Positions 18,453 through 35,424 of a stretch of 35,424 nucleotides of DNA are shown here, piece by piece; positions within the stretch are counted from its first letter, which is position 1, and each line of letters begins with the position of its first letter. Source of the stretch: an uncultured Candidatus Peribacteria bacterium (lineage in GTDB: Bacteria; Patescibacteriota; Gracilibacteria; UM-FILTER-43-11). The notes under the pieces are model-generated. The model searched no databases, was not told where the DNA came from, and saw nothing but the letters and a program-made list of their open reading frames with translations. The translations under genes were made by a program, and so were the position numbers. The DNA is taken from contig CAZIDW010000005.1 of the NCBI GenBank assembly GCA_964538225.1, positions 1 to 35,424 of the forward strand, given 5' to 3'.

Positions 18453-18480
18453 TTGATAACTGATTGACATCTAATCAACA

Positions 18481-18514
18481 GTAGTACGCATGTGCGCGTA
18501 GTACGCATGTGCGT
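18481..18514. repeat. 17-nt tandem duplication with palindromic core
   Basis: The two units are gtagtacgcatgtgcgc and gtagtacgcatgtgcgt. They contain GTACGCA-tg-TGCGTAC and are followed by GGCC-tgaaa-GGCC and GCGC-actc-GCGC. Confidence 0.75.
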
Positions 18515-18655
18515 ACCTGTGTAGGCCTGAAAGGCCGCGCACTCGCGCACCATAAATAATCAAATAATCAGCAATCCATTAGCAGTCTATAAGAAGTCTA
18601 TTAGAAATCTACCAGGAAAATGGTTATAATCAGGATGTCCTTTTAACTAAACTCC

Positions 18656-18955
18656 ATGTTCGCCGCCTTTTTCATTTTCATCTTTATCCATTTGGTCGTT
18701 TTCGTTTTTTTTGTCGAAACGTTGCGCCGCGTTTACAAGCGTTTTAGTGAATATAATCTGGAAGATAAGCGGGAGACGATTCCGTTCGGCCTGGTCCGCC
18801 TGCGGCACATTGTGGTTTTGTATGTGGTGGGGTATATATTGTGGATTGTTGTTTCTATTGTGCTTTACCTGACATTTGTCGCTCCGGATTCGTCCCTATC
18901 CATCCGTAATGGTTCCCGTCCGGGGACGGCAGGGAGCATGGAACTTGATTTGTAA
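18656..18955 (+). CDS. hypothetical small membrane protein (99 aa)
   Basis: It has two clear hydrophobic segments (FAAFFIFIFIHLVVFVFFV and VVLYVVGYILWIVVSIVLYLTF) and ends 29 nt before guaA. I recognise no family. Confidence 0.45.
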   Translation: MFAAFFIFIFIHLVVFVFFVETLRRVYKRFSEYNLEDKRETIPFGLVRLRHIVVLYVVGYILWIVVSIVLYLTFVAPDSSLSIRNGSRPGTAGSMELDL

Positions 18956-18984
18956 CCCTCCAGGCCTTTAGGCTTGATATCATT

Positions 18985-20974: not shown

Positions 20975-21520
20975 GTGCCAAGAAATCCTGATTTAGACAA
21001 GTTGGTGGAACAGGCGCAAAAAGGTGACGCAGAAGCGTTTGCCGGGATTTATGATGAACTGGTGAAACCGGTTTACCGTTATATTTATTACCGGGTCGAA
21101 GATGCCATCGCGGAGGATCTGACAGAAGAAACGTTTTTAAAGGTGTGGCAGAACCTTAAAAAATACAAAAAGGGCAAGAACCCTTTTTCGTCATGGGTGT
21201 TCCGGATTGCGCATAATTTACTCGTGGACCATTACCGCCAAAGCAAGACGACCGAGATGATTGAAGAAACGATTGCGGACACCAAAAAGGAAAGCAATCC
21301 TCATCACCAGGCAGACCTGAAACTCACCCAGATTCGCCTGCGCAAGGTTATACGGCGACTGCCGGACAATTACCAGGAGGTGATTATTTTAAAATACATC
21401 AATGAGCTGGACAACAAAGAGATCGCGCACGCTATCGGCAAATCCGAAGGGGCGGTGCGTACGATCCAGTTCCGCGCGCTGGAGCGTTTAAGATCTCTTC
21501 TTTCGGAAGATAATTTTTAA
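20975..21520 (+). CDS. ECF-type sigma-70 family RNA polymerase sigma factor
   Basis: It has a GTG start. Region 2 is FSSWVFRIAHNLLVDHYR and the region 4 helix-turn-helix is LDNKEIAHAIGKSEGAVRTIQFRALERLR. Confidence 0.9.
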   Translation: MPRNPDLDKLVEQAQKGDAEAFAGIYDELVKPVYRYIYYRVEDAIAEDLTEETFLKVWQNLKKYKKGKNPFSSWVFRIAHNLLVDHYRQSKTTEMIEETIADTKKESNPHHQADLKLTQIRLRKVIRRLPDNYQEVIILKYINELDNKEIAHAIGKSEGAVRTIQFRALERLRSLLSEDNF

Positions 21521-21772
21521 TTTCTATAAAAGAATGAAACGTAGTTTTTTGCTGTTATTTTCAATAGGGAAACGCTCTCCTTTTGCAGCCTTCAGCTTCG
21601 TTCAGGTTACATCGGAGCCCTCGCTTCATTTTGTCCCCCTTCGCCTATGGCTACGGAGGACTCATTTCGCTCGGACCGCGTTTCTCGCTACTTAACTGAA
21701 ACAAAAATGACATTTTTACGTTATAACTATCGACAATGTGTCTAACGACACAGGTCAAAGTTGACACGATTT

Positions 21773-23806
21773 ATGGACGACCTTGAAAAAGCACTGCACC
21801 GGCTTTCAAAAACCGAACCCCGTTCCGGGTTTTGCCGCCAAGCCAGAAAACGCCTGATGTATAAGGTACGGCTGAGCGCGAATGAAACATGGTTTTTGCG
21901 GTTGTTTAAAAAAGTTTTTTTCGTCAACCCATCCCCGGATTTCGTCCGGCAGGCGCGCGTTCGCCTTATGGAACGCATCGTGGCGATGAAACGGCCCGTT
22001 TTCAGCTGGCTTCTGTTTGCCAAGCGCGCCGTTGCCACTACTTTGGTAATGCTGATTGCCGTGACCACTACCTTATTTTTTGTAGGCGGTAAACAGCAGG
22101 TCAGCGCGGCTGAGCCCACCTATCTTGAAGTGATGGGTGGCGATGTGTCTGTGAAACATGCTGACCGGCTGATTTGGGATGTGGTTTCCGAACAGACGGA
22201 ACTCATGGCGGGGGATCTAGTGCGCTTGGGCGATTCCGCGTCCGCGGTCGTCCATTTTTTCGATGATTCCCAGCTTCGTCTGGCAGGCGGGTCCTCCTTT
22301 TTGCTGAGCCGCCTGGATGTCAGCCCCGAATACGCGCGCCAGGGAATAATTGAAGTTTCCCTGCATCAGGGGCAGGCATGGGTCCAAGCGTTGAGCGCGG
22401 ATGACGGTTACGCGCGTTTTACGCTCATCACGCCGGATGCCATTCTTTCCGCCGACCACGCCTCTTTTGATGTGAAGACTTCGTATCCGGAACCCACCAC
22501 CCTCCGCGTGTTTAAACACGGGGTCGATGTCAAAGTCCTGCGCCAGGAATCTCGTCAGGCAGCGGCGACTGGCCGGCTGAACATATACCAGAAAGCCACT
22601 TTGCAGGCTGCTACGCCTTATCAGTCCTCTGCCGAGCTGGCAGCGTTTGCCCCTGCTAAAGAATTAACGGATGAAGACCGTGAAGATGCCTGGGTGCTTG
22701 AAAACCTGACATCCGACCGCCAGCACCTGGCGGAACTGCGCGACCGGGAACTGGCCACACTGAAAGCGGCTACCGGCGCGTTGCCCGGTCAGGCGCTTTA
22801 TCCTTTAAAACGCGCCAGGGAACGGCTTCAGCTGGTCTTCAGTTTCAATGAAGAAAGCCAGCAGAGCGCTCAGGTGGCCATGGCCAATGAAAGGCTGTCC
22901 GAGGCCATGGTATTGATCGAAGAAGGCGACACTGAACGGGCGAAATCCATCCTGATGGAATACCAGCGCCTGGTCCGCCAGATCGCTGAGGAAAAAGAAA
23001 ATGAAGCGATGAAAGACCAGCTTTCCAGCGAGGTAATGCTTAGCTATAAAAAAACCCTGGCCGCCACTTTACCCGAAGACGTACATGTGGGTATGGTCAA
23101 ACAGGCGCTCAATGAAACCGAAGAGCTTTTGGCCGCCGACCCGGCTGAACGGGCGGAGATTCGCCTGAAGAACAATCTGGACGATTTAAACCAGGTACAG
23201 GAACTGGTAGAAGCCGGCGATTTGGAAAATGCCGAGGAAACGCTCGCGGACCGTGAGATCATGGCTGCTTTATTGATCGAAGAAGCCTCCGCTTTAGAAG
23301 ATGAAGAGCAGAGAAAGGCGCTGTTCACTCAAATTTTGGAAACCCAGTACGAAGAACAGCGTATTTTAAATGAACTCCATCGCAAACTGGGCGATGAGGA
23401 AAGCCCCCTGGCTGACCTTGTGCAGAAAGCCCATCGGTCGGTCGAAGACGACATCAAGCACACGGCCGCGGTGGCCAAGCCCCTGCTGCCCGATGTGGTG
23501 CTAAACGACGCGGTCCGGCTGCCGGAAGACGAAAAAGTCATCGAATTCGTGAACAAGGTCAATATCTACCGTACGGCTCAGGGCCAGGCCAACCAGATCA
23601 AACGCCTGCTTTCCAAGCACCCGCAGTACAAGCAGAACCAGGAATTCTTAGAAAAAGTCCGCGCCCGGCTGGATGCCCGCGCCCAGGACCAGATCAACAT
23701 CTACCTGCTTGAGTTAAAGCGCGAGGCGACCGAAGCGAAAAGCAAAGTGGTGAAACGGAAGATCGACCAGGCGCGGCGGGCGATGGAGGAGCGGCTAGAT
23801 GATTAA
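21773..23806 (+). CDS. single-pass membrane protein with FecR-like domain and long coiled-coil (DUF5667-like) region; putative anti-sigma/sensor partner
   Basis: The TM segment is VATTLVMLIAVTTTLFFVG. It is followed by a FecR-like beta domain (GDVSVKHADRLIWD...AGDLVRLGDSASAVVHFFDDSQLRLAGGSSF) and then a ~350-aa helical Glu/Lys-rich region. I chose the ATG at 21773 (MDDLEKAL). The track start at 21761 is a TTG. Confidence 0.78.
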   Translation: MDDLEKALHRLSKTEPRSGFCRQARKRLMYKVRLSANETWFLRLFKKVFFVNPSPDFVRQARVRLMERIVAMKRPVFSWLLFAKRAVATTLVMLIAVTTTLFFVGGKQQVSAAEPTYLEVMGGDVSVKHADRLIWDVVSEQTELMAGDLVRLGDSASAVVHFFDDSQLRLAGGSSFLLSRLDVSPEYARQGIIEVSLHQGQAWVQALSADDGYARFTLITPDAILSADHASFDVKTSYPEPTTLRVFKHGVDVKVLRQESRQAAATGRLNIYQKATLQAATPYQSSAELAAFAPAKELTDEDREDAWVLENLTSDRQHLAELRDRELATLKAATGALPGQALYPLKRARERLQLVFSFNEESQQSAQVAMANERLSEAMVLIEEGDTERAKSILMEYQRLVRQIAEEKENEAMKDQLSSEVMLSYKKTLAATLPEDVHVGMVKQALNETEELLAADPAERAEIRLKNNLDDLNQVQELVEAGDLENAEETLADREIMAALLIEEASALEDEEQRKALFTQILETQYEEQRILNELHRKLGDEESPLADLVQKAHRSVEDDIKHTAAVAKPLLPDVVLNDAVRLPEDEKVIEFVNKVNIYRTAQGQANQIKRLLSKHPQYKQNQEFLEKVRARLDARAQDQINIYLLELKREATEAKSKVVKRKIDQARRAMEERLDD

Positions 23807-23949: not shown

Positions 23950-23988
23950 GCCCCGTCCACCGTTGCATAAAGCTATGGTGGACGGGGC
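23950..23988 (-). terminator. perfect 12-bp GC-rich hairpin 10 nt after the stop of island gene G
   Basis: GCCCCGTCCACC (23950-23961) pairs with GGTGGACGGGGC (23977-23988) across a 15-nt loop. The minus-strand downstream sequence UCUUUCC is only weakly U-rich. Confidence 0.55.
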
Positions 23989-23998
23989 GGGGTACCCT

Positions 23999-24625
23999 CT
24001 ATTGTTGGAGCTTGTTTTGATCGATGGTCCCATTTTGGACTAGGATGGCCAAGAGGTAATCGAAGTCCTGTGCCAGCCTTTCGTCGGCTTCGCGGTTGGC
24101 CGCAAGCCGCTTGTGCAGCCAGTAAGCGATACCGGCCGTCGAACCTAAACAAATGAGGCTGACCAGAAGGATGATGACCACCGTCCAGATCAGGCTGGAC
24201 TGCTTTTCCTCGAACTCGGCGGCCGTCAGGACCACAGGCTCGTCCGGGTCGGGATGATGGTGGTCGACCCGCGCCTTCAGCTTGCCGAAGGCGCCCTCCT
24301 CGCTTATAAAGGCTTCCATCTCTTCCTTGGTAATGAAGTGGGTGCTCTCTTCCTTGGTGATGAAGTGGGTGTTGTTATTCGTGGGGGGGTCCTTTTTGGG
24401 TTCGGGTTTCTTGGGGGAAGCCCTATGCCTCCGCTTGGGGACAGGCTTGGCGGGAATCTTACCATGGTTGCAGATTTCGTCATGCTGAGCTTGGCTGATC
24501 AGACCACTGGACTGATCCATTTTTGCCTGCGTACACGGATCGACCGTTTGGGCGCCGGCGACAGCCAGCAGAAAGGTCAGAAAGGTGACAAGGAAAAAGA
24601 CAAAGATAATTCCGTACCGTTTCAT
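23999..24625 (-). CDS. island gene G: type-I membrane protein, unknown function
   Basis: The signal peptide is MKRYGIIFVFFLVTFLTFLLAVAGA. It has a basic Pro/Lys stretch, a tandem 9-aa repeat THFITKEES/THFITKEEM (27-nt repeat at 24321-24371) and the TM segment LIWTVVIILLVSLICLGSTAGIAYWL. A strong SD precedes it (GAAGGAG, 7 nt before the ATG). Confidence 0.7.
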   Translation of the reverse strand: MKRYGIIFVFFLVTFLTFLLAVAGAQTVDPCTQAKMDQSSGLISQAQHDEICNHGKIPAKPVPKRRHRASPKKPEPKKDPPTNNNTHFITKEESTHFITKEEMEAFISEEGAFGKLKARVDHHHPDPDEPVVLTAAEFEEKQSSLIWTVVIILLVSLICLGSTAGIAYWLHKRLAANREADERLAQDFDYLLAILVQNGTIDQNKLQQ

Positions 24626-24785
24626 GATTCAACTCCTTCTCCCCGAGGGGAATCCGAGATTACGTGTTCGTAAAGAGGGTACCTGACGAGCAGTACCCCT
24701 CATCTTTTTATTTGAAAGCAAGTTGTACAACACTCGCCATGTGACTCTTTACGAACGCCCAGTGGTTTAAAAGAACAGATTTGCC

Positions 24786-25646
24786 TTAAGCCGTTTTTTT
24801 AATGGTTTCCGCGCCCCTTCCTTTCATACTTTTTTCGCTAGCCTGTTTCGCTGGCAGCTCGGCCATATTAGATGCTGTTTCAGTCGCCGCGACCTCCTGT
24901 TTCGCGGTTTTAACGCAATTCAGTGTACGGTCGATGCCGCTGCGGACATTTTTTACCGATTTTTGGATGCCGCGGGGGTAAGCCATTAGTCCGTTGCCAA
25001 TGTTTTCAGCCACAGGTTTAGCGGGTTTTGCCAACTCGATTGACGGCCTGCCCACCATCCTTACTGGAGTGGCGGCGATGCTGAATGGCAGCGAAATTGT
25101 GTTACCGAAAGCCCTCACTGGCTGGCCGCTTTTAACATTTTTTACGATTTTTCCAACTCTGGAACGGGTTTTTGATATACCATTTTTCAAGCCGAGCCAC
25201 ATATTTTTAGGGATTCTGATGACATTGCCTGGTGTTTTGAACACGCCTTTGATTACATCGCGGAAATTATGGACCAGATTTTTCTGAATGCAGATCAGGG
25301 GGGCTTTGACCAGTTCTTTCATGCCGCCGTAGATCGATCCTTTAAACACGCCGGCAGCCGCTTCGCGCGTGGCTTTTATCGGCATCTTGAATTTATCCAG
25401 TACTCTGGGTATGTATTTTGTCCCCAGGCTCAGGGGTTTTGTAATAGGCCATAAAACTATTCTCGCGGGAAAAGTGACCCATTTAAAACCTTTCCACAAT
25501 CCCCTGCCAAGCACTTTAAGGCCCGACCCGCTCGCTTTTGCGACTGCTTTGGCTTTTTCCGCGGCCATGCGGGGCATGCGTTTTTCTTTCACGAAACTGG
25601 TGTGAAAGTCATTGTTGTGCCAAAGGGTGGTTGTATTATGGAACAT
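24786..25646 (-). CDS. island gene F: highly basic Lys/Gly/Pro-rich protein, unknown function
   Basis: The 286-aa ORF contains recurring K-x-[VI]-K-x-G-like units (IKGVFKTPGNVIRIPKN, GKIVKNVKSGQPVR, IQKSVKNVRSGIDR). The start is uncertain and the ATG at 25577 (MPRMAAEKAKA) is an alternative. Confidence 0.6.
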   Translation of the reverse strand: MFHNTTTLWHNNDFHTSFVKEKRMPRMAAEKAKAVAKASGSGLKVLGRGLWKGFKWVTFPARIVLWPITKPLSLGTKYIPRVLDKFKMPIKATREAAAGVFKGSIYGGMKELVKAPLICIQKNLVHNFRDVIKGVFKTPGNVIRIPKNMWLGLKNGISKTRSRVGKIVKNVKSGQPVRAFGNTISLPFSIAATPVRMVGRPSIELAKPAKPVAENIGNGLMAYPRGIQKSVKNVRSGIDRTLNCVKTAKQEVAATETASNMAELPAKQASEKSMKGRGAETIKKTA

Positions 25647-25662
25647 GGTTTATGGCTGATTA

Positions 25663-26901
25663 TTAAGCCTGTTGGAAAAGATTATTTAAATCAAAGCGGT
25701 CTTTCAGCGCGCGGTACACTTCCTGGATTTTATCGCTGATTTCCTGTTCGTTTTCCAAACCGAAGGTTTCGCGCATTAGTTGTTCCGGATTGTCGACTTC
25801 CGGGGTATTTTTAAGAGCCAGTAACATAATGCCTAAGGAATCTTCCGGGAATACTGCGTCAATATCTAACCCCAGTTGCTGTAATTCCTCCGTATCGGGC
25901 TGTTCTTTAAAAATCCGGATTAATTCATCTGTGTACTGTTTCGCCCTTTGGGCTTCAGTATCGTTTGTTGTCTCAGCCACCTGATTTACGCCTGTTGCAG
26001 GTATAGGGTTTTGTGTCGCTGTTTCATCTAATGCATCACCGATTGCCGGTCGCGTTATTTTTACCTGTTGGGACATTTGGCTTAATATGCTTTCGATGTC
26101 ATTTTCATCGAATCGGCGCGGCTCTTTGCCGGGATTGTATTCAGGCAGTCTTAATTCTTCCGCCCATTCGATTTGCGCGTACACACTGCACGATTGTTTT
26201 TCCACGTAGATTCGATGACCGATTTTAGACATCAGATTTAAAATTTTATTGCCGTATTTTTCGATGTAATCCATCAGCTCATCAAACGGCTCCATCACAT
26301 CAGCCAGTTTTTTCAGATGCTGTCTCATGGTCGCTTCATCGTCATCGTTCCGGATTTTAAATATTTTGCTGAACAGTATATTAGTCGCCGTTACTTTCCT
26401 TGTGGTGAGACTGCGGATGTCGTTCCGCGTTACGTTTTTTCCGATCACAGCAATCATAATCGCTCTCAGCAGATTTTTTAGATTTTCCTCATCCAGCCCC
26501 AAATATTTCAGTAGGTTCCGGTTCTCATTGGGCTCCCGGACATGGTTTTTTAACAGTTCGATCAATGTCCGGACCGTGGCTACAGCCAAAGGCTGTTCCT
26601 TACAGATCTCTTTAAAGCGTTTGAAATTATCCGATTCAGGCTGTGTCGCAGACAAGGTCTGCGGGGCCCTTTCCGCTGTCGTTTGTGCCGGAACCGGCTC
26701 ATTGCCCTTAATATCTGCGTCAGGCCGGCTGTTTTCAGGGGTCTGTTGAGGCTCCTTGGGCTTAAGCTGGCTTTGCAGCCTGTCCCGCAGGGTATTTTGC
26801 GTAGCGGCGCCCGATTCCCTTTGCTTGATGGTCTCCTGGACACGCTCAGCTAAAGGCTTTCGGATACGCTCATTGACTGATTTTTTTCTAAAGATGGCCA
26901 T
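25663..26901 (-). CDS. island gene E: soluble acidic protein, unknown function
   Basis: The 412-aa ORF has a disordered Gln/Pro/Thr-rich N-terminal ~95 aa followed by helical-looking regions. It has no TM segment and no motif I recognise. Confidence 0.7.
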   Translation of the reverse strand: MAIFRKKSVNERIRKPLAERVQETIKQRESGAATQNTLRDRLQSQLKPKEPQQTPENSRPDADIKGNEPVPAQTTAERAPQTLSATQPESDNFKRFKEICKEQPLAVATVRTLIELLKNHVREPNENRNLLKYLGLDEENLKNLLRAIMIAVIGKNVTRNDIRSLTTRKVTATNILFSKIFKIRNDDDEATMRQHLKKLADVMEPFDELMDYIEKYGNKILNLMSKIGHRIYVEKQSCSVYAQIEWAEELRLPEYNPGKEPRRFDENDIESILSQMSQQVKITRPAIGDALDETATQNPIPATGVNQVAETTNDTEAQRAKQYTDELIRIFKEQPDTEELQQLGLDIDAVFPEDSLGIMLLALKNTPEVDNPEQLMRETFGLENEQEISDKIQEVYRALKDRFDLNNLFQQA

Positions 26902-26950
26902 TGTTTTAAAATTAAAAAGTAGAGATTAAAAGATAAAAATTTTAGGGGAT

Positions 26951-26982
26951 GGCGCGCCTCGTCGTGGTCGACGAGGCGCGCC
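26951..26982 (-). terminator. perfect 14-bp GC hairpin exactly 14 nt after the stop of island gene D
   Basis: GGCGCGCCTCGTCG-tggt-CGACGAGGCGCGCC. On the minus strand it is followed by AUCCCCUAAAAUUUUUAUCUUUU. Confidence 0.6.
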
Positions 26983-26996
26983 CGGTTGTCCGTTCA

Positions 26997-27656
26997 CTAG
27001 CCGTATTCGTCCAGGTCCAGCGCGTCGGTCAGACTGTCTGGCGCAGGGGTTGCTGGTAGCGTTGCGGGCCGCCTATAGCCGCAGCCTGCGGTGCAGGTCT
27101 TCGGCCCCAGGTAACCTCCGCAGTTCGGACAGGTCGAGGCGGGATCTGAGGGAGCCGTCGCGGGGGGCGGCGCTGTCGGCGCACCGGGCTGGGCTGGGGG
27201 AGTGGGAGCGGAACCTGCTTCCGGCGGCTTTTTGGGCCAGTACCGGAGGGTCAGGAGTGCTTTCCACCCTTTCTTTTCCGCCAGGCTGGTGAGCTCTGGC
27301 GGCTGGAAGCGGATTACCCCGATTAACATCAAGGGGATGAGCCAGCCCAGAGATTCGTCGGCGCAATGGAAAAGCGCCAAGCTGAGCCCGTAGGCGACCA
27401 CGAACCAGAAGGGTATACCCTTTAGGGAGCGCGCCTTTTTTCCGGGCAGGCTGATGTAGTGATACACTAGGAGCGCGAGAAGCAGGAACGCCCAACTACC
27501 GGGCACCAGGTACTCTGACCAATGGTTGAGAAAGTACTCCTTTTTTGGCCAGAAGGTGGGATCCACCTGGTCGGCAATCATTTCGGCTTCATCGGTGCAG
27601 CCGGTGGAAAGGATGACAGCGACGAGCGCTGCCATCAGTTTCAGGAAACGCTTCAT
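26997..27656 (-). CDS. island gene D: lipoprotein-signal polytopic membrane protein with C-terminal zinc ribbon and acidic LDEYG tail
   Basis: The signal/lipobox is AVILSTGC and there are 3-4 hydrophobic segments. A Pro/Ala-rich linker leads to CPNCGGYLGPKTCTAGCGY (CxxC...CxxxC, about 27075-27131). The C-terminus is SLTDALDLDEYG. The SD is AAGGAGG, 5 nt before the ATG. Confidence 0.75.
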   Translation of the reverse strand: MKRFLKLMAALVAVILSTGCTDEAEMIADQVDPTFWPKKEYFLNHWSEYLVPGSWAFLLLALLVYHYISLPGKKARSLKGIPFWFVVAYGLSLALFHCADESLGWLIPLMLIGVIRFQPPELTSLAEKKGWKALLTLRYWPKKPPEAGSAPTPPAQPGAPTAPPPATAPSDPASTCPNCGGYLGPKTCTAGCGYRRPATLPATPAPDSLTDALDLDEYG

Positions 27657-27801
27657 AACTGCCTCCTTTTAAGGCTGGTCGTGAACGGATAACAGAGAAA
27701 GTTCTGCCTTTTTCATCCTTCTCCGTCAAGGCTTCGAAGGAGAAAAAGACAAGAGGGTCTCTGTTATCGTTTCTCGGAATTTTAAAGAACAAGGGAATAA
27801 A

Positions 27802-27830
27802 ATTTTATAATATTTTTTATATTTTGTCAA
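27802..27830 (-). promoter_or_regulatory. sigma70-type promoter of island gene D (TTGACA-17-TAAAAT)
   Basis: The minus strand reads ttgaca aaatataaaaaatatta taaaat. It predicts a ~135-nt leader. Confidence 0.65.
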
Positions 27831-27856
27831 TCTTTTCTTAAAGAAAGCTGGTGAAC

Positions 27857-27885
27857 GGCGGCCCGGGAGAGGTTCCCGGGCCGCC
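27857..27885 (-). terminator. perfect 12-bp GC hairpin exactly 14 nt after the stop of island gene C
   Basis: GGCGGCCCGGGA-gaggt-TCCCGGGCCGCC. On the minus strand it is followed by GUUCACCAGCUUUCUUU and then the gene D promoter. Confidence 0.55.
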
Positions 27886-27899
27886 TGGTTGCTGTGCGC

Positions 27900-28766
27900 T
27901 CAGGAGTATTCATCTAACTCAGGGAGATCGAGGGCTTCCTCCAGAGATAGGGAGGTGGGCGAATCGGCCTGCCTGGATGATGTTTCGCAGTTCCCGCAGA
28001 GGACGTAGCCAGGCGGGTTCAGGTACCCGCAGGCGGGGCAGCTGACCCAATTCCGCTGGTCCTGCTGGGTGGGCTGGCTGGTGTCGGCGGCGGTAGGGGT
28101 TATTGCAGGCTGTTTGCCTTCCGCCGCCTTTTTCTTGCCGAAACGAATGCGGCGCCAGATTCCCAGGATGGAATTCTTGGGCGCGTTTTTGACCCACCCC
28201 TTAGCCTTGTCCCCGCCGACCTTTTCGGCGATGAACAAAATCATCATGATACAGCCGACGGTGCCGGCGGGCACAAAAATACCCCACAGCCAGAGCGGCT
28301 TGCTGGTGAGGGTTTTGCCCCCGCAGATACCTGCTAGGGCGACGCAGCCCAAAGCGCCGACCGTTATTTCTCCGACAGACAGAGGATCCTTTTGGCCGGG
28401 CAGTTTTTTGTCCATGACCCCCCGCCACCATTTCCCCGCTTTTGCAATTGAGCCGAGGATAGGAATGGGCATAGGGAAATAGGACAGGATTACAGGGATG
28501 AGCCAAAATGGCTGGAATGGCGGGATTACCAAGTACGTGACCCAGGGGCCGACATATTGGCGAGTGACCTTGACGATGATTAGGATCCAGAAGACTCCGA
28601 CCGCAAAGGCCCACATCCAGGACTCCGCGGGGGTTATGGCGTTGGTGACGGTGGATGAAAACCAATTCCACGCCTTCATCATGATTCCAGTTAAACTGCC
28701 TGCCCAAGCGACCTTGGGCAGTAACAACACAATGAGCATCGATACTCCCAAAGTAAACTTGCGCAT
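27900..28766 (-). CDS. island gene C: signal-peptide polytopic membrane protein with C-terminal zinc ribbon and acidic LDEYS tail (paralogous architecture to D)
   Basis: The signal peptide is MRKFTLGVSMLIVLLLPKVAWA and there are about 5-6 hydrophobic segments. A basic stretch RRIRFGKKK leads to a low-complexity linker and CPACGYLNPPGYVLCGNC (about 27987-28040). The C-terminus is SLSLEEALDLPELDEYS. The SD is AGGAG, 7 nt before the ATG. Confidence 0.75.
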   Translation of the reverse strand: MRKFTLGVSMLIVLLLPKVAWAGSLTGIMMKAWNWFSSTVTNAITPAESWMWAFAVGVFWILIIVKVTRQYVGPWVTYLVIPPFQPFWLIPVILSYFPMPIPILGSIAKAGKWWRGVMDKKLPGQKDPLSVGEITVGALGCVALAGICGGKTLTSKPLWLWGIFVPAGTVGCIMMILFIAEKVGGDKAKGWVKNAPKNSILGIWRRIRFGKKKAAEGKQPAITPTAADTSQPTQQDQRNWVSCPACGYLNPPGYVLCGNCETSSRQADSPTSLSLEEALDLPELDEYS

Positions 28767-28985
28767 AGTCAGACTCCTTTCGTAACCTCCTCGCGGGAGG
28801 CGTTTTTTGGTTTAACGGTCGTATCTGATTACCGGATAATCAAATAAAACCGTTAAACCGGTTTGATTCTGAACGTACACAGCAAGGAAGAGATCTGCTG
28901 TCAATCACCTCCGTAGAGGGAGAAATGGACAGCAAATCCTTCCTCGCTACGAGTTGTTAAAGAACAAGGTTGAGTAAGAGTGTAT

Positions 28986-29014
28986 ATTGTACAATAAATT
29001 AAATTTTATGTCAA
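28986..29014 (-). promoter_or_regulatory. sigma70-type promoter of island gene C (TTGACA-17-TACAAT)
   Basis: The minus strand reads ttgaca taaaatttaatttattg tacaat. It predicts a ~210-nt leader. Confidence 0.7.
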
Positions 29015-29052
29015 TAGTATTTCAGAGATAAAATCCATTAACCGATTTATAC

Positions 29053-29077
29053 AAAAAAAAGAGCCGATAAACGACTC
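29053..29077 (-). terminator. rho-independent terminator of the 1569-aa gene
   Basis: The minus strand reads GAGUCG-uuuau-CGGCUC (one G.U pair) followed by U8 (A-run 29053-29060 on the plus strand). Confidence 0.6.
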
Positions 29078-29198
29078 CCCGAAAGGAAATAAGTAGTATA
29101 TTTAAATAATATACTTCTTGATTTATTTGTCAAGGGTCTAAGTCCTAGAATAAACAATCCTCTTAATTCAGAAATGGCTCAATTAAGACAAAATCCAC

Positions 29199-32100
29199 TT
29201 AGGGCCTATTGGCTTTTTGCCATTCATTATCCCAGCCGTCAGGACGCACATTGTAGTTATCTGTGTTTTGCCGCCCCCGGATGTGTCCAAGATATAAGTC
29301 TCCCTCTAATTTATTTTTTTCAAATAATTTTAGAGATTTATCATATGTCTCTGCGTTGGTTCTGTTTTTGTAGAACTGTGACATGGCTGTTCCGGGACTA
29401 CGGGCGCTTTCAAAATATTCATCCAGCCATTGTTTCTGTTCTTCGCTTAGTGATGTGTAACGTCGTATCCAGGCAATCGATCCGCTGTCGATGAACGGAA
29501 GGACATCCAATACATCGTGCGCAAAACCACCGGCCTTTCCAATCACATAAGAAGATGCCCGCACCCATTGCGAAAAGGCCAACAGCGCGTACCCGCCGAA
29601 TTTTTTAGTACCATAACTGTTTAAGCCGAAAGCCTCTTTCACATTTTCGTATAAGCCTTTTTTTGGGTCGATAATAAACGGCAGTCGGTCTTTGATTTCT
29701 GCGGCATTGTAATAATCCGGGAAGCGCCCCTTTTCCTTTAGGTAATATTCATGGCTGTCCGGCATGGGCATGCGGTAAAACGCGTAGATTTTAGACGGAG
29801 CTTTTTCGCCCGGCCCCCCTGTCTTTACCACGACATGGATGGTGTCCATGTATTTTTTCAAATCGGCTTTGGTTAGGTTCGGATGCTTGCTCACAAATTG
29901 TTCCATTGCCTGCTCGCGCATGGCTTTCTCCATTAAATTGTGGGCTTCGCCAACGGAATGGGTGTCTTTTACCCCTGCTTTTTCTTTGTCAACTGAAGTG
30001 AGAAGGTAGCCGATGCGGTAATCCGGGCTCCGTTCATTCTGCGTTTCCGTAAAATAAGCATTGCCGTTCGCGATGGCTTCCGGATTGCCGTTTGCCGCTC
30101 CGAAGGCGCTGGCGAACGGCCGCGTATAGTATCCCAAAAAACTAAATGTCTCACTCCCTCTTAATTCATCATCATCCTCCAGTTTCTGGCGATCAAGCTG
30201 GCTGTTTTGATCCAACAGTTCTCTGCCGACCACATCCCGCAACTCCAAATCGCGATGGATGGTCACCAGCTGGTCGCTCCTGAGCAGTTCTTTGACCTGG
30301 CGCAGTTTGGTGGTCGTCCATGGTATGGCGAATTTTGAGACCCCGTACAGCACTTCCAGCGGCAGGGTCACGCCTTCCACAGTCAATTGCCAGACATCAT
30401 CCACAAATTCAAGAATGACGGGTTTTTTGGCCTCGTACCAGATTTCAGCCCGGCGCCCCATAATCTTAACATTAGTAGTCGTTGAATCCACCAGCTCGCT
30501 CAATACTCTTTTGACCCATGGCACATAATGTGTGCCCAGGTTGTCGTAAAAATCTTTGCCGGCTTCAGTTACAGGTGAATAAATGTCGTAGCGGAATTTG
30601 GCGATTAGTTTATTGCTCGTTTCCTTGCCCCATTCCTTTGACCTTTCCAATAAGCTTTCTTTTTGCACGCGTTCCGCCTCGTAGCTGTCCATTTCCGCCT
30701 TCAGCACCACTTCCCAGGTCAAATCATCGGGATTATTGCGGAACTTTTTGATGATTATCTGTTGGATTTCCGTAAATTGGGCTTTTTCCAGGTCATAGTC
30801 CTTATCTGTAATGGCTTTTACCCACCGTTCGTTTAAGGCTTCCTTGCCCCAGTAGGCGTCTTTTTCCACCTTATCCCCCACATAGCCGAAGAAGTTTTCA
30901 ATGGTGCGTTTTACCACTTTAGCAGCCCGCATCTCCGGATCGTATTCTTTAAATTTAATGCCGCGCACAATATTGTATGCCTGGATCCGCCGGGGCAGTT
31001 TTACGTCTTCATGACCGGGCCGGGGCCGGCCGTCCGGCGTGGTGGCCTCGTACCATTCCATTAATTCAGCAAACGGCACATCGTTGAGCTCCTGCAGGGC
31101 GCGGGCGTGTTCGTCGTCGGAAATCTCGTTTTTTTCCATGTCCGCTGCCCCCTGTTCCAGCAGTACGGATTCATACGTGCCCTCCATGGATTCCGCGATG
31201 CCGGTGAGTTTGAACCGGTCCAGAAGCCCTTCGCCGGTCACGTGTTTAATGGTGAGTTCCGCGGCGCCGGCCATAAAAAGGACGCGCAGGAATTTGCCGG
31301 ATTTCCCTTCGCCTTTGTAGGCTTTTTTGGCCAGTTTCCAGGCCCCGATGAGCAGGGCCACGCCCGCGGCGCGGTTGGCAATGCTCTGCCCCGGGCCGAT
31401 GACCATGTCGATCACGCCTTTGGCGTAATCAGTGATCTTGTCCCCAAAAGTCATGCCGTCCAGTTTGGCGGCCAGTTCCGCTTTTCCCTCCGCGCGGGCC
31501 GCGTCGATTTTTTCGCGGTGTCGGATTTCGATTTCAATCATTTTCACAATATTCCGCGCAGTGATCTGGGCATTCCGTATCTTGGGGTCCGGGTCCAGTT
31601 CCGCGCCTTTAATGGTTTCCAGCACTTTCAGAAAATCTTCTTTGCCCTGGGCCACACCCGGTTTGGTCTCCGGCAGGATGTAATTGAACATCTTTACCAG
31701 TTTCTGCACGCCTTCTTCGCTGGCCAGCATGTGGTCCCATGCTTCTATTTTCATGCCCGGGTCCCCCTCTTTGTTTTCCGGGCTGATGTAGTCTTCGTAC
31801 CGGCCCTGCACGTATTCCATGCGCATCCCCAGCCGTTCCAGGTAATCCCAGCGGCTTTCCGGGTCGTAATCCAGCGTGCTGTAGGTTACATCGATATGCG
31901 CGAGGTCCTCTTCAAAGGATTTGATGAATTCCCTGTTGTTGACCCCGTAGATCTCATCGTAAAGGCTTTTCGTTTTTTTAAAAGTTTCGATGTAATCTGC
32001 GAATTGTTTGCGTGTCGGGTTTTTAACGCGCGCCAATTTGTGCGCCTCTTTGTATAAGCCTTGCCATTGTTGCAGGGTTTTTTTGTCGCGTTTAATCACC

Positions 32101-33908
32101 TTGCCGATGTTGTCCCGCGAGAGCGGGTTTCCATCCGGCCCGTAAACGTATTGGCTTAATTCCGCGATCATCGGGTCGATTTCTTTGTCCTCAGATTTTT
32201 CTTTAATCAATTCGCTGATTTCCTCCATGCGCCCGATGTTGTCCTCCAGCAGGCGCGCTTTTACCATGGCCAGGTTCGCGTAGCGGGCGAACAGCAGAAA
32301 GGTACGCTGGGGGGCCTGCAAAAACCGGCCTTCCACGGTGCGGTTGAAGTATTCGGACTGCGCCAAAGTCTCAAACATCCATTTATATTCATCGGTGATG
32401 TCACCTTCATATTCTTCTTTTCCTTCTTTATTGATCCGGTAGCGGCTGACCCCTTCGCGATAAATCGTGGCGACCAGCATGCGCCGGATGGCCGGGTGCA
32501 GGTCTTTGCCGAAATACCCGCCGTGTTCCCCGTACAGGTGGTCTACCGTTTCCATGGCTTTTTTGAACTTGCGCATGGCTAGTTCCATCAGGATCTGGCG
32601 GTTATTGGGCTTGCTCAGACTTTCCCGTGTGAAGGCTTGTCCTGCCTTTTCTTTGTCTTCTACGCGTTTGTGGTAATCCTGGGCCGCGTCAGCCAGTTTT
32701 TTGCACTTTTCCAGATCTTTTATCTTTTCCTGATAAATAGCGATGTTCAGATGGGTCTCCTTTTCTTTTTTAAGATTTTTTATTTTGATTTCAAAATCCA
32801 GCTGTATGTCTCCGATAGCTCCCCCTATTTCCCCGAAAGCCCGGCTTAAAGGCGGTGTCATCCGCACCTTGGCCGCCCGGTTTTCTATTCCGGTTGCCCC
32901 GCTGGTTTGGATGATCTCGTCGATACGCGCGGGAATGGCATCGCTTTTTGCCCGGGCCAGTGTTTCCTGTTCCGTGAGCTTTTCGTGAAAATGGCGTATA
33001 TCCTGTTCAGGGTCTTTGCCCCCCCAGTAGGTCAACCATTCATGATGAAGGAAGGGAAAATTCCTTTTGTTCTCCGCCGGATCGTTTTTAAAATTTTCAC
33101 CCAATACAAAGCTATTGGGGGCAAAATCATTGGTCTCGTACGCCAGGATCGACAGAAACAGCTGTTTGCTTTCACGCAGTTTTTGTTCGGATTCAATTCC
33201 CTCTGGCCCTTTCCAGAAGCTCTCAAAAAAACGGTCGCTCAAAAGCGGGCTTTCCACCGCCCGTTCAAAGGCTGCGACCGCGTTGTTGAATTCACGGCTT
33301 TCCTTAAATTCCTTACGCTTTCTCATGATTTCCCCCACCTTTTCGCCTTTATAGGTCAGGCGCTGGTGGCGCCGGTAAATCACGTCTGTTTTGGCCTTTT
33401 CCAGCTTTTTGAGAAGGGCTTCATGCTCCTCGATGGCTTTTACCAGTGATGCTAATTCCTTGGGCTGATTCCGTCTTTTTTCAAAGTATTTTTTAACCTC
33501 TTTAAACGGATGCCACTTTTTGCCGGTCTCGTCATCCTCGTAAAAGAACTCGGATTCCTGAATGGCTTTGGTGCGGTCTTTGGTAGCCCCCAAATCATCA
33601 AAATCCAGTTTAACGGCCTGCTCGTGGGGCCGTCTTTTTTTGGCGACGTCATCCCATTCCTCAAAATCTTCATCCGCGTATTTCTGGTTGTATGCTTTCT
33701 GGCTCGCCAGGAGTGTTTCCCGGCTTTCTTCCACCTTTTCTTTTTGCTTATCAACTTCCTCCTCCAGTTTTTTAATGGTCTCTTCTTTCAGGTCGGTCTC
33801 AATGCCGGCTTCTGTTTCCAGGCGGAATTCCCTAAAGACCGGCTGGTTTACCCATAAGCCGAAATCACTGTTTTCAGAACGATGGTGGCTCCAGGCGGTC
33901 AAAGGCAT
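29199..33908 (-). CDS. island gene B: 1569-aa protein of unknown function with central hydrophobic hairpin
   Basis: It is a single uninterrupted ORF, mostly charged and helical-looking. It has no signal peptide, HExxH or Walker A motif. The only hydrophobic stretch is central (GVIDMVIGPGQSIANRAAGVALLIGAWKLAKKAYKGEGKSGKFLRVLFMAGAAELTI, about nt 31250-31440). Confidence 0.85.
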   Translation of the reverse strand: MPLTAWSHHRSENSDFGLWVNQPVFREFRLETEAGIETDLKEETIKKLEEEVDKQKEKVEESRETLLASQKAYNQKYADEDFEEWDDVAKKRRPHEQAVKLDFDDLGATKDRTKAIQESEFFYEDDETGKKWHPFKEVKKYFEKRRNQPKELASLVKAIEEHEALLKKLEKAKTDVIYRRHQRLTYKGEKVGEIMRKRKEFKESREFNNAVAAFERAVESPLLSDRFFESFWKGPEGIESEQKLRESKQLFLSILAYETNDFAPNSFVLGENFKNDPAENKRNFPFLHHEWLTYWGGKDPEQDIRHFHEKLTEQETLARAKSDAIPARIDEIIQTSGATGIENRAAKVRMTPPLSRAFGEIGGAIGDIQLDFEIKIKNLKKEKETHLNIAIYQEKIKDLEKCKKLADAAQDYHKRVEDKEKAGQAFTRESLSKPNNRQILMELAMRKFKKAMETVDHLYGEHGGYFGKDLHPAIRRMLVATIYREGVSRYRINKEGKEEYEGDITDEYKWMFETLAQSEYFNRTVEGRFLQAPQRTFLLFARYANLAMVKARLLEDNIGRMEEISELIKEKSEDKEIDPMIAELSQYVYGPDGNPLSRDNIGKVIKRDKKTLQQWQGLYKEAHKLARVKNPTRKQFADYIETFKKTKSLYDEIYGVNNREFIKSFEEDLAHIDVTYSTLDYDPESRWDYLERLGMRMEYVQGRYEDYISPENKEGDPGMKIEAWDHMLASEEGVQKLVKMFNYILPETKPGVAQGKEDFLKVLETIKGAELDPDPKIRNAQITARNIVKMIEIEIRHREKIDAARAEGKAELAAKLDGMTFGDKITDYAKGVIDMVIGPGQSIANRAAGVALLIGAWKLAKKAYKGEGKSGKFLRVLFMAGAAELTIKHVTGEGLLDRFKLTGIAESMEGTYESVLLEQGAADMEKNEISDDEHARALQELNDVPFAELMEWYEATTPDGRPRPGHEDVKLPRRIQAYNIVRGIKFKEYDPEMRAAKVVKRTIENFFGYVGDKVEKDAYWGKEALNERWVKAITDKDYDLEKAQFTEIQQIIIKKFRNNPDDLTWEVVLKAEMDSYEAERVQKESLLERSKEWGKETSNKLIAKFRYDIYSPVTEAGKDFYDNLGTHYVPWVKRVLSELVDSTTTNVKIMGRRAEIWYEAKKPVILEFVDDVWQLTVEGVTLPLEVLYGVSKFAIPWTTTKLRQVKELLRSDQLVTIHRDLELRDVVGRELLDQNSQLDRQKLEDDDELRGSETFSFLGYYTRPFASAFGAANGNPEAIANGNAYFTETQNERSPDYRIGYLLTSVDKEKAGVKDTHSVGEAHNLMEKAMREQAMEQFVSKHPNLTKADLKKYMDTIHVVVKTGGPGEKAPSKIYAFYRMPMPDSHEYYLKEKGRFPDYYNAAEIKDRLPFIIDPKKGLYENVKEAFGLNSYGTKKFGGYALLAFSQWVRASSYVIGKAGGFAHDVLDVLPFIDSGSIAWIRRYTSLSEEQKQWLDEYFESARSPGTAMSQFYKNRTNAETYDKSLKLFEKNKLEGDLYLGHIRGRQNTDNYNVRPDGWDNEWQKANRP

Positions 33909-33940
33909 GTTTTTGTTTTGTCCAATAAAATTATCTTAAT

Positions 33941-33949
33941 ATTATACCA
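33941..33949 (-). promoter_or_regulatory. extended -10 element (TGgTATAAT) upstream of the 1569-aa gene
   Basis: The minus strand reads tggtataat about 32 nt upstream of the ATG at 33908. The -35 is weak (TGGTAA). The predicted leader is short and has no SD. Confidence 0.5.
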
Positions 33950-33951
33950 AA

Positions 33952-33990
33952 AATTCCGTCCTTTTACCAGAGAGTAAAGTTGACGGAATT
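33952..33990 (-). terminator. hairpin after island gene A (9-bp stem, 21-nt loop, then U-run)
   Basis: AATTCCGTC (33952-33960) pairs with GACGGAATT (33982-33990). On the minus strand the 3' arm runs into UUUUU and then the -10 of gene B. Confidence 0.45.
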
Positions 33991-34016
33991 AATAAATAGT
34001 TTTTTAATTTTATAAC

Positions 34017-35060
34017 TTATTCATCTTTCTTTTTGGCGGACTGGCGCCTTTTCTGCCGTTCAGCAATGGCGTTCTGGTAGCCTTCCGGCACCGCCCAGAT
34101 TACAAATCCTACCCCTTCTCGGCGTCCCGTATTTTCCATTAGATATCCTTCTTTCGATACGCTTAATATGGTTCGGAAAGAACGGTAAGTGGGCACTTTG
34201 ATGATAAAAACGCCCGGATTGTACTTATTGGTTACTACATGGAATTGCATAGTTTTTTCTGGCTCCTGCCCTTCCATAATCATCTGTAAGTTTTTATTCA
34301 TTTCCTCGCGCGAGCGGGGGTGTTGTTCTAAAAGTCTCAGAAATTCTCCGTATCCGGTATTGACGTTACTGTCTTCCGCATCAGGATTGAGTTCGCCTCT
34401 TAGTTGAATTAGCTTGGCCAGTCGATGGGGCAGTTTAATACGGTAGGTGTCATAAATGCCCTGGTCGCGGTCTTTTTTTCCGCGGATCCGATTCCTCCGG
34501 TTGGCAAAGATTTTGCGGTTGACCTTGGGGATTGTCTTGTCAAATTTGTCCCAGTCTAGCCATCCAAGGGGGTTCAGTTCTACCCCGTTTACCTTCACGA
34601 TTTGACCGAACTGGATGCGTATCAAAAAATGCTCAGGAATGTGTACAGCATCATCCCGACGCGTGATATTAAAAACACCCGATGCTTCTTCGCGGTAATG
34701 CAGTTCTTCCGGATGTTGAATAGCCAATTCCAACACTTCGTCTACCTTTTCTTGTTTTTCACTCCTTTCGATATACAGTAAAAAAGAAGGATTGAGATAA
34801 AAACGATAAAGCGTTTCTTGGCAATTTTGAAGCAATTCCAATTCCTCCGGGCCGAATTCAATGGGCGTGCGGTACTGGTCCCGTTCGCGCTGGCATGAGA
34901 TATTCAGATAGCACGGGGGCACGTCCGCTTTTGCTTCCCCAAACGGGCTGACGATTTTTAAAATCGCCGCGGCCACGGCGCCGCGCAGGAGCGCGCGCCG
35001 GCTGACGACCGGATTTCGGGGTTTTTCGCCTTCAGATTGATCGGGTTTATTCACACTCAT
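34017..35060 (-). CDS. island gene A: Tat-signal secreted protein, unknown function
   Basis: It has a twin-arginine signal VVSRRALLRGAVAAAILKIVSPFGEAKA. I moved the start to the ATG at 35060 (MSVNKPDQ...) because the track ATG at 35099 lies between the -35 and -10 of the promoter below. Confidence 0.72.
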   Translation of the reverse strand: MSVNKPDQSEGEKPRNPVVSRRALLRGAVAAAILKIVSPFGEAKADVPPCYLNISCQRERDQYRTPIEFGPEELELLQNCQETLYRFYLNPSFLLYIERSEKQEKVDEVLELAIQHPEELHYREEASGVFNITRRDDAVHIPEHFLIRIQFGQIVKVNGVELNPLGWLDWDKFDKTIPKVNRKIFANRRNRIRGKKDRDQGIYDTYRIKLPHRLAKLIQLRGELNPDAEDSNVNTGYGEFLRLLEQHPRSREEMNKNLQMIMEGQEPEKTMQFHVVTNKYNPGVFIIKVPTYRSFRTILSVSKEGYLMENTGRREGVGFVIWAVPEGYQNAIAERQKRRQSAKKKDE

Positions 35061-35090
35061 AAAATGGTCATAGGTTATGGAGTGAATTTT

Positions 35091-35118
35091 ATTATACATT
35101 ATAAATATATTTTGTCAA
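35091..35118 (-). promoter_or_regulatory. consensus sigma70-type promoter of island gene A (TTGACA-16-TATAAT)
   Basis: The minus strand reads ttgaca aaatatatttataatg tataat. The -10 element is at 35096-35091. Confidence 0.7.
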
Positions 35119-35178
35119 TATTATTTCCAATTCTTAAATTGGGATCCCGCCGAATAACCATTGTAAATGACCCCCTCT

Positions 35179-35408
35179 GACTCGCTACGGCGAGTCTTCT
35201 CCCCCTCGCCTGAGGGACCCCCTCCCTCCCCGCAAAGCGGGGAGTACTCCCCCTCGCCTGAGGGGGAGACTGTTTGTTTTTGCCCTCGCCGGGCGGGCGA
35301 CCGCTCCGAAGTCACATCGGAGCGGTCAGAAAAACCCGCCGGGGGCCTATGAGCCGTGTAATCACCGGAGTCGCCTTGTATCACCGTCTGCCACGGCCAT
35401 AGCCCCCG
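35179..35408. other. string of five GC-rich hairpins with an 18-nt direct repeat, running toward the window edge
   Basis: The hairpins are GACTCGC-tacg-GCGAGTC (35179-35196), CTCCCCGC-aaa-GCGGGGAG (35225-35243) and CTCCCCCT-cgcctg-AGGGGGAG (35248-35269). They continue with GACCGCTCCGA-agtcaca-TCGGAGCGGTC (35299-35327) and a long imperfect stem GGGGGCCTATGAGCCGTG...CACGGCCATAGCCCCC (35341-35408). The direct repeat CTCCCCCTCGCCTGAGGG occurs at 35199-35216 and 35248-35265. Confidence 0.6.
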
Positions 35409-35424
35409 GACCCCCAGGGGTCGC

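Follow-up and report, generated by a model that had tools for sequence, protein, structure and literature searches.

Between positions 23999 and 35099 of the 35,424-nucleotide stretch of DNA analysed here (the window, from an uncultured Candidatus Peribacteria bacterium), seven consecutive genes on the minus strand almost certainly belong to a real, conserved and clade-specific cluster of undescribed protein families, which is neither mobile, nor derived from a phage, nor a known defence system. The genes are lettered A to G, with A nearest the window's right end, and the corresponding loci of relatives are numbered L001 to L016. Judged from those loci, the cluster appears to run H-I-A-B-C-D-E-F-G, the seven genes of the window representing its promoter-distal part, A-G. 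In the libraries searched the signature protein B has no relative by sequence or by fold, and no member of the cluster fits a described system. The reading preferred here, to which a probability of roughly 45% is attached, is that the products form a single structural assembly, non-enzymatic and located at the cell envelope, in a Peregrinibacteria-like clade of Patescibacteria. Conserved synteny, a promoter motif common to B and H, a C-terminal peptide common to C and D, the 16-nucleotide spacing of E and F, predicted topology, the lack of enzymes, the unmatched fold of B and fast evolution together point towards such an assembly.

Gene content, gene order and chromosomal setting

An earlier note on this DNA, made by a model from the sequence and without database searches, had counted seven consecutive same-strand open reading frames (ORFs), and the ORF listing returns exactly those lengths, all on the minus strand: G at 23999-24625 (208 residues), F at 24786-25646 (286), E at 25663-26901 (412), D at 26997-27656 (219), C at 27900-28766 (288), B at 29199-33908 (1569) and A at 34017-35099 (360 residues as the longest ORF, or 347 from the ATG at 35060). 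The true start of A is most likely the ATG at 35060, because a sigma-70 promoter matching the consensus at 12 of 12 positions overlaps the upstream ATG and because homologues align from Met14, and both observations favour the earlier estimate of about 347 residues. All seven genes are real: for each, one or more of the syntenic loci L001, L004 and L009 encode a full-length protein homologue, 48-78% identical.

A word-indexed search returned three relatives of B, and an exhaustive profile search of 1.84 billion proteins extended the family to 84 representatives (50% clusters), 61 of them at E < 1e-30 and most of them 1500-1800 residues long. Those records that name an organism give 'Patescibacteria group bacterium' or 'Candidatus Peregrinibacteria bacterium'.

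The same gene order recurs in at least eight independent genomes, over a range of B identity from 78% down to 21%, and the co-occurrence on which the earlier note had made its proposal depend is thus found in other genomes. In L009 (B 77% identical) the order is I-A-B-C-D-E-F-G, followed by genes for an anti-sigma protein and an extracytoplasmic function (ECF) sigma factor and by guaA, GT4, murG and ftsW, a mirror of the window; L004 (B 78%) is arranged likewise, running from a B gene cut at the contig start through C-D-E-F-G to anti-sigma, ECF sigma and guaA. L001 (B 74%) reads H-I-A-B-C-D-E-F, with an H of 850 and an I of 113 residues, before its contig ends. At lower identity, L006 (B 36%) has B-C-D-E-F-G and L008 (B 31%) has H-I-A-B-C-D-E-F-G with two lipoprotein genes between I and A, both loci continuing into anti-sigma, ECF sigma and guaA. 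L016 reads cca-H-I-A-B-C-D-E-F-G, and L013 and L014 read H-I-A-B-C. L010/L011 (B 24%) has pepA...H-I-x-B-x-F-like-G-like, then sigma and guaA, and both L012 (B 21%) and L015 have cca-pepA-x-H-I-x-B, with anti-sigma, ECF sigma and guaA coming almost immediately after B. Wherever a locus extends far enough, the flanks are cca/pepA on one side and a block of ECF sigma/anti-sigma-guaA-GT4-murG-ftsW-lspA on the other, a block that makes up the window's left half; L016 is the exception, with a VanY gene in place of the sigma flank.

Every relative with a contig that extends so far has H and I upstream of A, and the window ends before both. H is a protein of 650-1425 residues in which a large cytoplasmic part is predicted, along with a membrane anchor of several helices at the C-terminus, and I is an acidic protein of about 110 residues. 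The seven-gene unit of the earlier note therefore has to be redrawn: in relatives it is extended by H and I ahead of A, and the conserved core is H-I-A-B, which the deepest branches keep, having lost or replaced some or all of C-G.

Where the ECF sigma factor is still 76-78% identical, B has fallen to 31-36%, F to 32-34%, A to 28% and E to 23%, and C, D and G have become undetectable by BLAST. This gap in identity to a neighbouring gene means that the cluster evolves fast while its order and architecture are kept, a behaviour that would fit structural or surface-exposed proteins.

In Pfam, NCBIfam, PHROGs and PADLOC none of the seven proteins had a match that reached a curated cut-off, which bears out the statement that they belong to no recognisable families; the best match was that of C to DUF7577, a zinc ribbon, with 21 bits where 28 are required. 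When 61 cluster proteins from 12 genomes were scanned against Pfam, only the zinc ribbons DZR, DZR_2 and DUF7577 and one FtsK_alpha domain appeared. Sequence-profile searches of the PDB with the B, A, C, E and F families returned nothing except generic ribbons of the L32/L40e/L37e/Nop10 type for C. Sequence searches revealed no recognisable catalytic domain or motif in any product, and a literature search on the envelope and attachment of Peregrinibacteria yielded nothing on these genes. Large Cys-rich exported proteins have been described (PMC4736985), and B, with one cysteine and no signal peptide, is unlike them.

The term island, also used in the earlier note, is wrong for the locus. G+C content is 42-57% inside the cluster and 38-57% outside, with no compositional break; the window contains no tRNA, and its ORFs include no integrase or transposase family; and no relatives turned up in viral contigs, phage records or plasmids. 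The locus lies beside the ECF sigma/guaA genes in the window and in L004, L006, L008, L009, L010, L012 and L015, L016 being the exception among the loci that reach this point, and it is vertically inherited at a fixed chromosomal position. A mobile or foreign origin, whether as prophage remnant, defence island or integrative element, would account for the orphan gene content, for tape-measure or internal-head proteins that match F and B at noise level, and for an IS-like (insertion sequence-like) ORF at one end of L008. However, the tRNA, integrase, compositional break and viral or plasmid relatives expected of such an element are all missing, there is no PADLOC hit, and the chromosomal position stays constant across deep divergence, so that this explanation is effectively refuted within the scope of the collections searched. 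The best scores against the defence models of PADLOC-DB were ZorA for F (E = 0.0097) and REase_II for E (E = 0.01), both of about 13 bits and neither a match, and among phage structural proteins phiKZ_IP reached 15.7 bits against a cut-off of 27 and phrog_1535 E = 0.061, again without a match.

The left part of the window consists of ordinary housekeeping genes, for a beta-CASP ribonuclease, glyceraldehyde-3-phosphate dehydrogenase, phosphoribosyl pyrophosphate synthetase, cysteinyl-tRNA synthetase, glycosyltransferases, TsaE, LspA (lspA, 14369-14836), FtsW, MurG, GuaA, the ECF sigma factor and a FecR/DUF5667 anti-sigma-like protein. In this half a 252-residue ORF at 13430-14188 (minus strand) has no Pfam or NCBIfam match. 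The genes for the ECF sigma factor and the 681-residue FecR/DUF5667 anti-sigma-like protein, at 20975-23806 on the plus strand, converge on G. At the other end, where relatives carry I and H, the DNA beyond about 35140 (35140-35424) is G+C-rich and non-coding, with two copies of CCCTCAGGCGAGGGGGAG-like hairpin repeats, and there the contig ends. About 100 nucleotides of it resemble (73%) a stretch of the A-B spacer of L008 (8369-8469, opposite strand), and a small repeat element may have interrupted the assembly at this point. In some relatives variable exported enzymes lie among the genes of the cluster or beside it (L001 3617-5232, L008 3921-5966, L016 21158-22357), including the two lipoproteins of L008 and a membrane-anchored VanY-like D,D-carboxypeptidase that is weak in L001 and clear in L016; the lipoproteins are paralogous and have an AHSGGG serine-hydrolase-like motif.

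Predicted features of the proteins

Protein B has no signal peptide, a single cysteine, and about 16% basic and 17% acidic residues. AlphaFold2 predicts an almost all-alpha protein with an alpha/beta C-terminal domain: residues 215-1410, modelled with a 53-sequence alignment, are almost all-alpha at a predicted local distance difference test score (pLDDT) of 79.4 and a predicted template modelling score of 0.61, and residues 1130-1569 gave 78.4 and 0.72 respectively, with the alpha/beta domain above pLDDT 90. Foldseek comparison of the two models with the PDB gave best E values of 1.2 and 0.39, neither a match, and comparison of one model with BFVD gave a best E of 0.21 at a template modelling score below 0.1, which is noise. 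The models thus suggest a fold without a known match.

The most conserved segment of B, residues ~815-905 (31194..31466, minus strand), is a Gly/Ala-rich helix-loop-helix with the motif GPGQSxANRAAG ... KGxxxxGK ... AGAAE ... TGxG ... GTYE. It corresponds to the central hydrophobic hairpin of the earlier note, which had picked out the best conserved part of the protein, but its hydropathy is only moderate and it is not clearly membrane-spanning: the maximum Kyte-Doolittle value is 1.2 in the B of the window (over 17-18 residues), and the family median over 18 residues is 1.36 (range 0.98-1.93). Its two helices carry conserved Arg, Lys and Glu residues, and the segment is modelled at pLDDT 51-65. 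A classical protein with two transmembrane segments was rejected on this low hydropathy; an element for peripheral membrane contact or partner binding suits the hairpin better than a transmembrane pair, although the data prove neither. A candidate P-loop (Walker A) was also rejected, as GEGKSGKF in the loop of the hairpin, the one string that resembles it, ends in F and is not conserved, relatives having GEGAMGKT or GEKDDKLGQ. No Pfam or PDB match supports a P-loop NTPase or a dynamin-like remodeller, and no conserved motif of catalytic type is visible in the B alignment.

The hairpin also bears on the suggestion that the cluster encodes a contact or host-membrane insertion device, in which B, and perhaps H, would be delivered to a partner membrane by way of the hairpin, with I as chaperone and A, C, D and G as conduit or anchor. 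Chlamydial Inc proteins and the type III secretion translocators IpaB and YopB, the latter with small acidic chaperones, insert a bilobed hydrophobic hairpin into a target membrane and offer a likeness, because B too has two adjacent helices of about 20 residues joined by a short loop in mid-protein, and the acidic I, of about 110 residues, is encoded nearby in relatives. Rapid evolution is typical of interface proteins, and in the candidate phyla radiation (CPR) the lifestyle is thought to be symbiotic (PMC4736985). On the other side, B has no signal peptide, is present as a single fixed copy per genome and lacks a variable toxin-like end; the helices fall below the thresholds for transmembrane segments and keep their charges; no homology links B to the Inc proteins or translocators; and Pfam scans found no ATPase or known secretion component in or beside the cluster. 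Such a device is therefore distinctly improbable.

Membrane proteins C and D are the members in which a faintly recognisable domain occurs. C (27900..28766) has a predicted signal peptide, four to five transmembrane segments, a Pro-rich linker, a zinc ribbon (~27978-28046) and the C-terminal peptide EEALDLPELDEYS (27903-27941). D (26997..27656) has a lipoprotein-like N-terminus (LSTGC), two transmembrane-like segments that exceed the hydropathy threshold, a Pro-rich linker, a ribbon and the tail TDALDLDEYG. The N-terminus of D (...VILSTGC) is an imperfect lipobox; the L006 homologue has a canonical LAGC, and lspA is encoded in the window. Both ribbons have two knuckles, CPACG...CGNC in C and CPNCG...CTAGC in D, and the ribbon cysteine columns are invariant across the C family. 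Ribbon scores in C are below gathering (DUF7577 21 against 28 bits, DZR 15.2 against 27.3), D matches no zinc-ribbon family (Ribosomal_L32p gives 14.6 bits against a cut-off of 21.3), and homologues of C in other genomes exceed the DZR threshold, that of L016 with 30.5 bits where 27.3 are needed. Membrane proteins of the families DZR (PF12773), DZR_2, DUF7577 and Zn_ribbon likewise have CxxC...CxxC after the last transmembrane segment, but the membrane domains of C and D, their Pro-rich linker and their shared terminal peptide have no described counterpart, and the ribbon itself is generic and silent on function.

C and D had been described as paralogous polytopic proteins with zinc-ribbon tails. 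The ribbons are present, but the paralogy is confined to ribbon and tail (BLAST E = 0.001; hhalign 18 columns, E = 6e-9), and full-length paralogy was rejected, since nothing else can be aligned. The extreme C-terminal peptide is common to C and D within each genome and differs between lineages, the types being ALDLxELDEY, ALDLLWRRK, ARRNF, VDKLFPV and TSRQLPPADGSGRRRSRV. Thus the window pairs EEALDLPELDEYS in C with TDALDLDEYG in D; L001 pairs EEALDLEEY with ADALDLDEFGS; L009 pairs KALDMLWRKR with SALDLLWRRKNR; L006 has QARRNF and RARRNF; L008 has PEVDKLFPV and PDVDKLFPV; and in L016 the C tail TSRQLPPADGSGRRRSRV recurs in D as an identical stretch of 18 residues. The codons of the two tails differ synonymously in the window, L009 and L006, and the identity is therefore kept at the level of the peptide. 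In L008 about 60 nucleotides of the C and D tails are nearly identical, which suggests gene conversion. Comparison of tail charge patterns between the window, L001 and L009 did not single out a partner for C and D, the identities being too similar.

Protein A begins with SRRALLRG followed by one hydrophobic segment and an AKA cleavage-like site, as judged by hydropathy, and has no Pfam or PDB-sequence match. Homologues with 21-78% identity lie directly upstream of B in L001, L009, L002, L008, L013 and L014. The N-terminal signal with its twin arginine, from which export by the twin-arginine translocation (Tat) system had been proposed, is indeed seen, but the Tat route is doubtful and export by it only possible, because the twin arginine is kept in four of seven homologues (the window, L009, L008 and L014) and absent from L001 (HPIRMA), L002 (IRGS) and L013 (RIR). 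No Tat family occurs among the ORFs scanned in the window, which covers 35 kb of the genome. Protein G (23999..24625), at the other end of the cluster, is the type-I membrane protein that had been described, hydropathy confirming a signal peptide and one transmembrane segment between a Cys-containing ectodomain and a cytoplasmic tail of about 40 residues. It has a homologue in L004/L009 (48%), and its position is taken by proteins of analogous architecture in L006, L008 and L010 and by one of similar size in L016.

Genes E and F are separated by 16 nucleotides. Protein E (25663..26901, minus strand, 412 residues), described earlier as acidic and soluble, is mildly acidic, with an isoelectric point of 5.25; it is predicted to be cytoplasmic, with no signal or transmembrane segment, carries the conserved motif NLLKYLGLDEENLKNLLRAI, has homologues in L001, L009, L006 and L008, and gave no PDB or Pfam match. 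In L016 the 613-residue protein in the E position (17354-19195) ends in an FtsK_alpha domain above gathering (27.4 against 22.9 bits) without an ATPase domain. A relation of E to FtsK was considered and rejected: the FtsK alpha domain (PF17854) occurs in one of 61 cluster proteins, that of L016, which shares the LGxxxxNL region of E only weakly (E = 0.008, probability 5%); the domain is absent from the window's E, and no ATPase (beta) domain occurs anywhere in the cluster.

Protein F (24786..25646, minus strand, 286 residues) is as basic as the earlier note had it, with an isoelectric point of 10.8, and has basic repeats punctuated by Pro and Gly and no signal peptide. Its N-terminal motif MFxxTTxWH is conserved in all lineages; homologues occur in L001, L004/L009, L006, L008 and L016, and a 276-residue F-like protein in the same position in L010 can be aligned without giving a BLAST hit. 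At the protein level the first 26 codons of F (MFHNTTTLWHNNDFHTSFVKEKRM) are kept in L006, L008 and L016; the public gene call in L009 (10001-10783) begins at a later Met, and the longer form of F is probably correct.

Promoters and structured leaders

Promoter sites that match the consensus at 11 or more of 12 positions on the coding strand number four in the 11.7 kb of the cluster, all intergenic, against one in the left 20 kb. This agrees with the near-consensus promoters and the multi-unit locus of the earlier note, and a single seven-gene operon was rejected on account of the multiple promoters. The promoters are sigma-70-like in appearance, not ECF-like.

The promoter of B contains the 19-nucleotide motif TTTGGTATAATATTAAGAT (33933..33951, minus strand), an extended -10 element with conserved downstream bases, just upstream of the B start at 33908. 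Its consensus is TTTG[GC]TATAATA[AT]3[AG]GAT. It occurs once in the window, where none is expected by chance, and in the 16 loci (~250 kb) it lies only upstream of B and of H, even where B identity has dropped to 21-24% (L001 5717-5735 and 9955-9973, L008 1036-1054 and 9002-9020, L016 2446-2464 and 8784-8802, and others). The B leader that follows the motif is short, A/U-rich and without a Shine-Dalgarno sequence, in contrast to C, which has AAAGGAG. A conserved box, GTCAAnnnTACyCTCTGG, lies about 20 nucleotides further upstream of the motif at B only.

Each unit combines a strong promoter with a structured leader conserved at least as well as coding DNA. Gene A has a perfect promoter, TTGACA-16-TATAAT (12/12; 35091..35118, minus strand), and over the 63 nucleotides upstream of A, L001 and L009 show 86% identity and L002, L008 and L014 partial conservation. 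The B-C spacer (28767..29198, minus strand) holds a promoter at 29133-29106, a terminator-like hairpin at 29080-29058, in which compensatory changes are present, and a second promoter at 29014-28986; its nucleotide identity is 79-89%, against 69-79% for the flanking coding sequence. The C leader of about 210 nucleotides is predicted to form three long hairpins, of which one measures about 30 bp, in a fold that pairs the AAAGGAG ribosome-binding site of C (minimum free energy -89 kcal/mol, z = -8.6; 72 pairs, 3 compensatory). The spacer might act as a cis-regulatory leader, contain an RNase III site or encode a tiny small RNA. An 11/12 promoter of D (27802..27830, minus strand) is followed by a structured leader (27650-27795) with a long hairpin (z = -3.9), in a spacer that is 78-82% conserved. 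Downstream of D a perfect 14-bp G+C hairpin (26951..26982, minus strand; z = -5.7) may be a terminator or a stabiliser of RNA 3' ends. The F-G spacer (24626..24785, minus strand) contains the long hairpin leader of G (24620-24765, z = -3.8) and is 87% identical to that of L009, against 63-67% for the DNA of F and G. The hairpin after D and the leaders of D and G are conserved in L001, L004 and L009. Rfam gave nothing at gathering threshold over the window as a whole, and on 28700-35424 nothing even at E <= 1.

An assembly at the cell envelope

The products have complementary predicted compartments: signal peptides or transmembrane segments are found by hydropathy in A, C, D and G and none in B, E and F. 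By this prediction B, E and F are cytoplasmic, C, D and G are membrane proteins whose tails face the cytoplasm, and A is exported. The distribution over cytoplasm, membrane and exterior agrees with the locations given in the earlier note, and the envelope-associated module proposed there is an inference from predicted topology. In the assembly envisaged here, B and H would form a cytoplasmic or membrane-peripheral scaffold, and C and D would act as membrane adaptors whose zinc-ribbon tails end in a common docking peptide that recruits one cytoplasmic partner. The acidic E and the basic F would form a pair, and A and G would make up the outward-facing part. The assembly could then serve envelope architecture, whether in cell shape, at the division site or in contact with another cell.

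Several observations weigh against this picture. Library searches gave no homology that ties any member to a function, and what is said of contacts between members is drawn from sequence and topology. The Foldseek check suggested in the earlier note was run for the B models, without a match, and covered B alone among A-G, the other alignments being too shallow; the B hairpin lies below the hydropathy needed to assert membrane insertion. C-G are missing or replaced in L012, L015 and partly in L010, and it may therefore be that the seven genes of the window are not one obligate unit. Synteny is just as strong in the flanking housekeeping genes as in the cluster itself, so that gene order alone is no proof of functional coupling.

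The last two observations lead to the alternative that the genes are functionally unrelated, fast-evolving orphans that stay together only through regional collinearity. Not only are guaA, the ECF sigma/anti-sigma pair, GT4, murG, ftsW and lspA equally collinear, but almost every gene of the cluster has its own promoter, and C-G can go while H-I-A-B stay. Against mere collinearity, however, stand a promoter motif exclusive to B and H, a tail peptide that C and D share and that evolves in concert, the close spacing of E and F, and products whose predicted compartments complement one another, and this alternative is considered rather unlikely.

A more ambitious form of the envelope assembly would be an undescribed, lineage-defining and envelope-spanning machine, either a contact or attachment organelle or a scaffold for division or shape, made throughout of new folds, with a co-evolving C-terminal peptide code by which C and D would dock and a dedicated promoter signature for B and H; as a description of this cluster it is somewhat unlikely. 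Comparisons with the Mycoplasma terminal organelle, the Streptomyces polarisome and the Inc proteins or translocators are analogies, and the cluster shows none of the defining features of these systems. Like the genes for Mycoplasma HMW1, HMW2, P65 and P30 and for Streptomyces Scy, FilP and DivIVA, those of the cluster are clustered, lineage-specific and non-enzymatic, with giant helical proteins beside small Pro-rich membrane proteins, and placement at the envelope would fit here as well. There is no sequence or fold similarity to these scaffolds, and B is modelled as a compact multi-domain helical protein, not as one long coiled coil.

The CPR, or Patescibacteria, make up a large share of bacterial diversity, are uncultivated and have about half of their genes unannotated, and almost nothing is known of their cell biology, be it division, the maintenance of shape or attachment to partners in such tiny cells. 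The cluster offers a delimited target in such genomes, with nine co-inherited families that include a protein of 1500-1800 residues whose fold is predicted with confidence and has no match. Its C/D peptide that changes in concert, its motif exclusive to B and H and its conserved structured leaders provide handles, and with these it is more tractable than orphan clusters usually are. If it does not encode an envelope or contact apparatus, the supposed island would still be a case of ordinary vertical inheritance and not of mobility or defence, with the missing annotation reflecting an unexplored lineage and not an artefact. If it does, the cluster would represent a new kind of bacterial cell-surface machinery.

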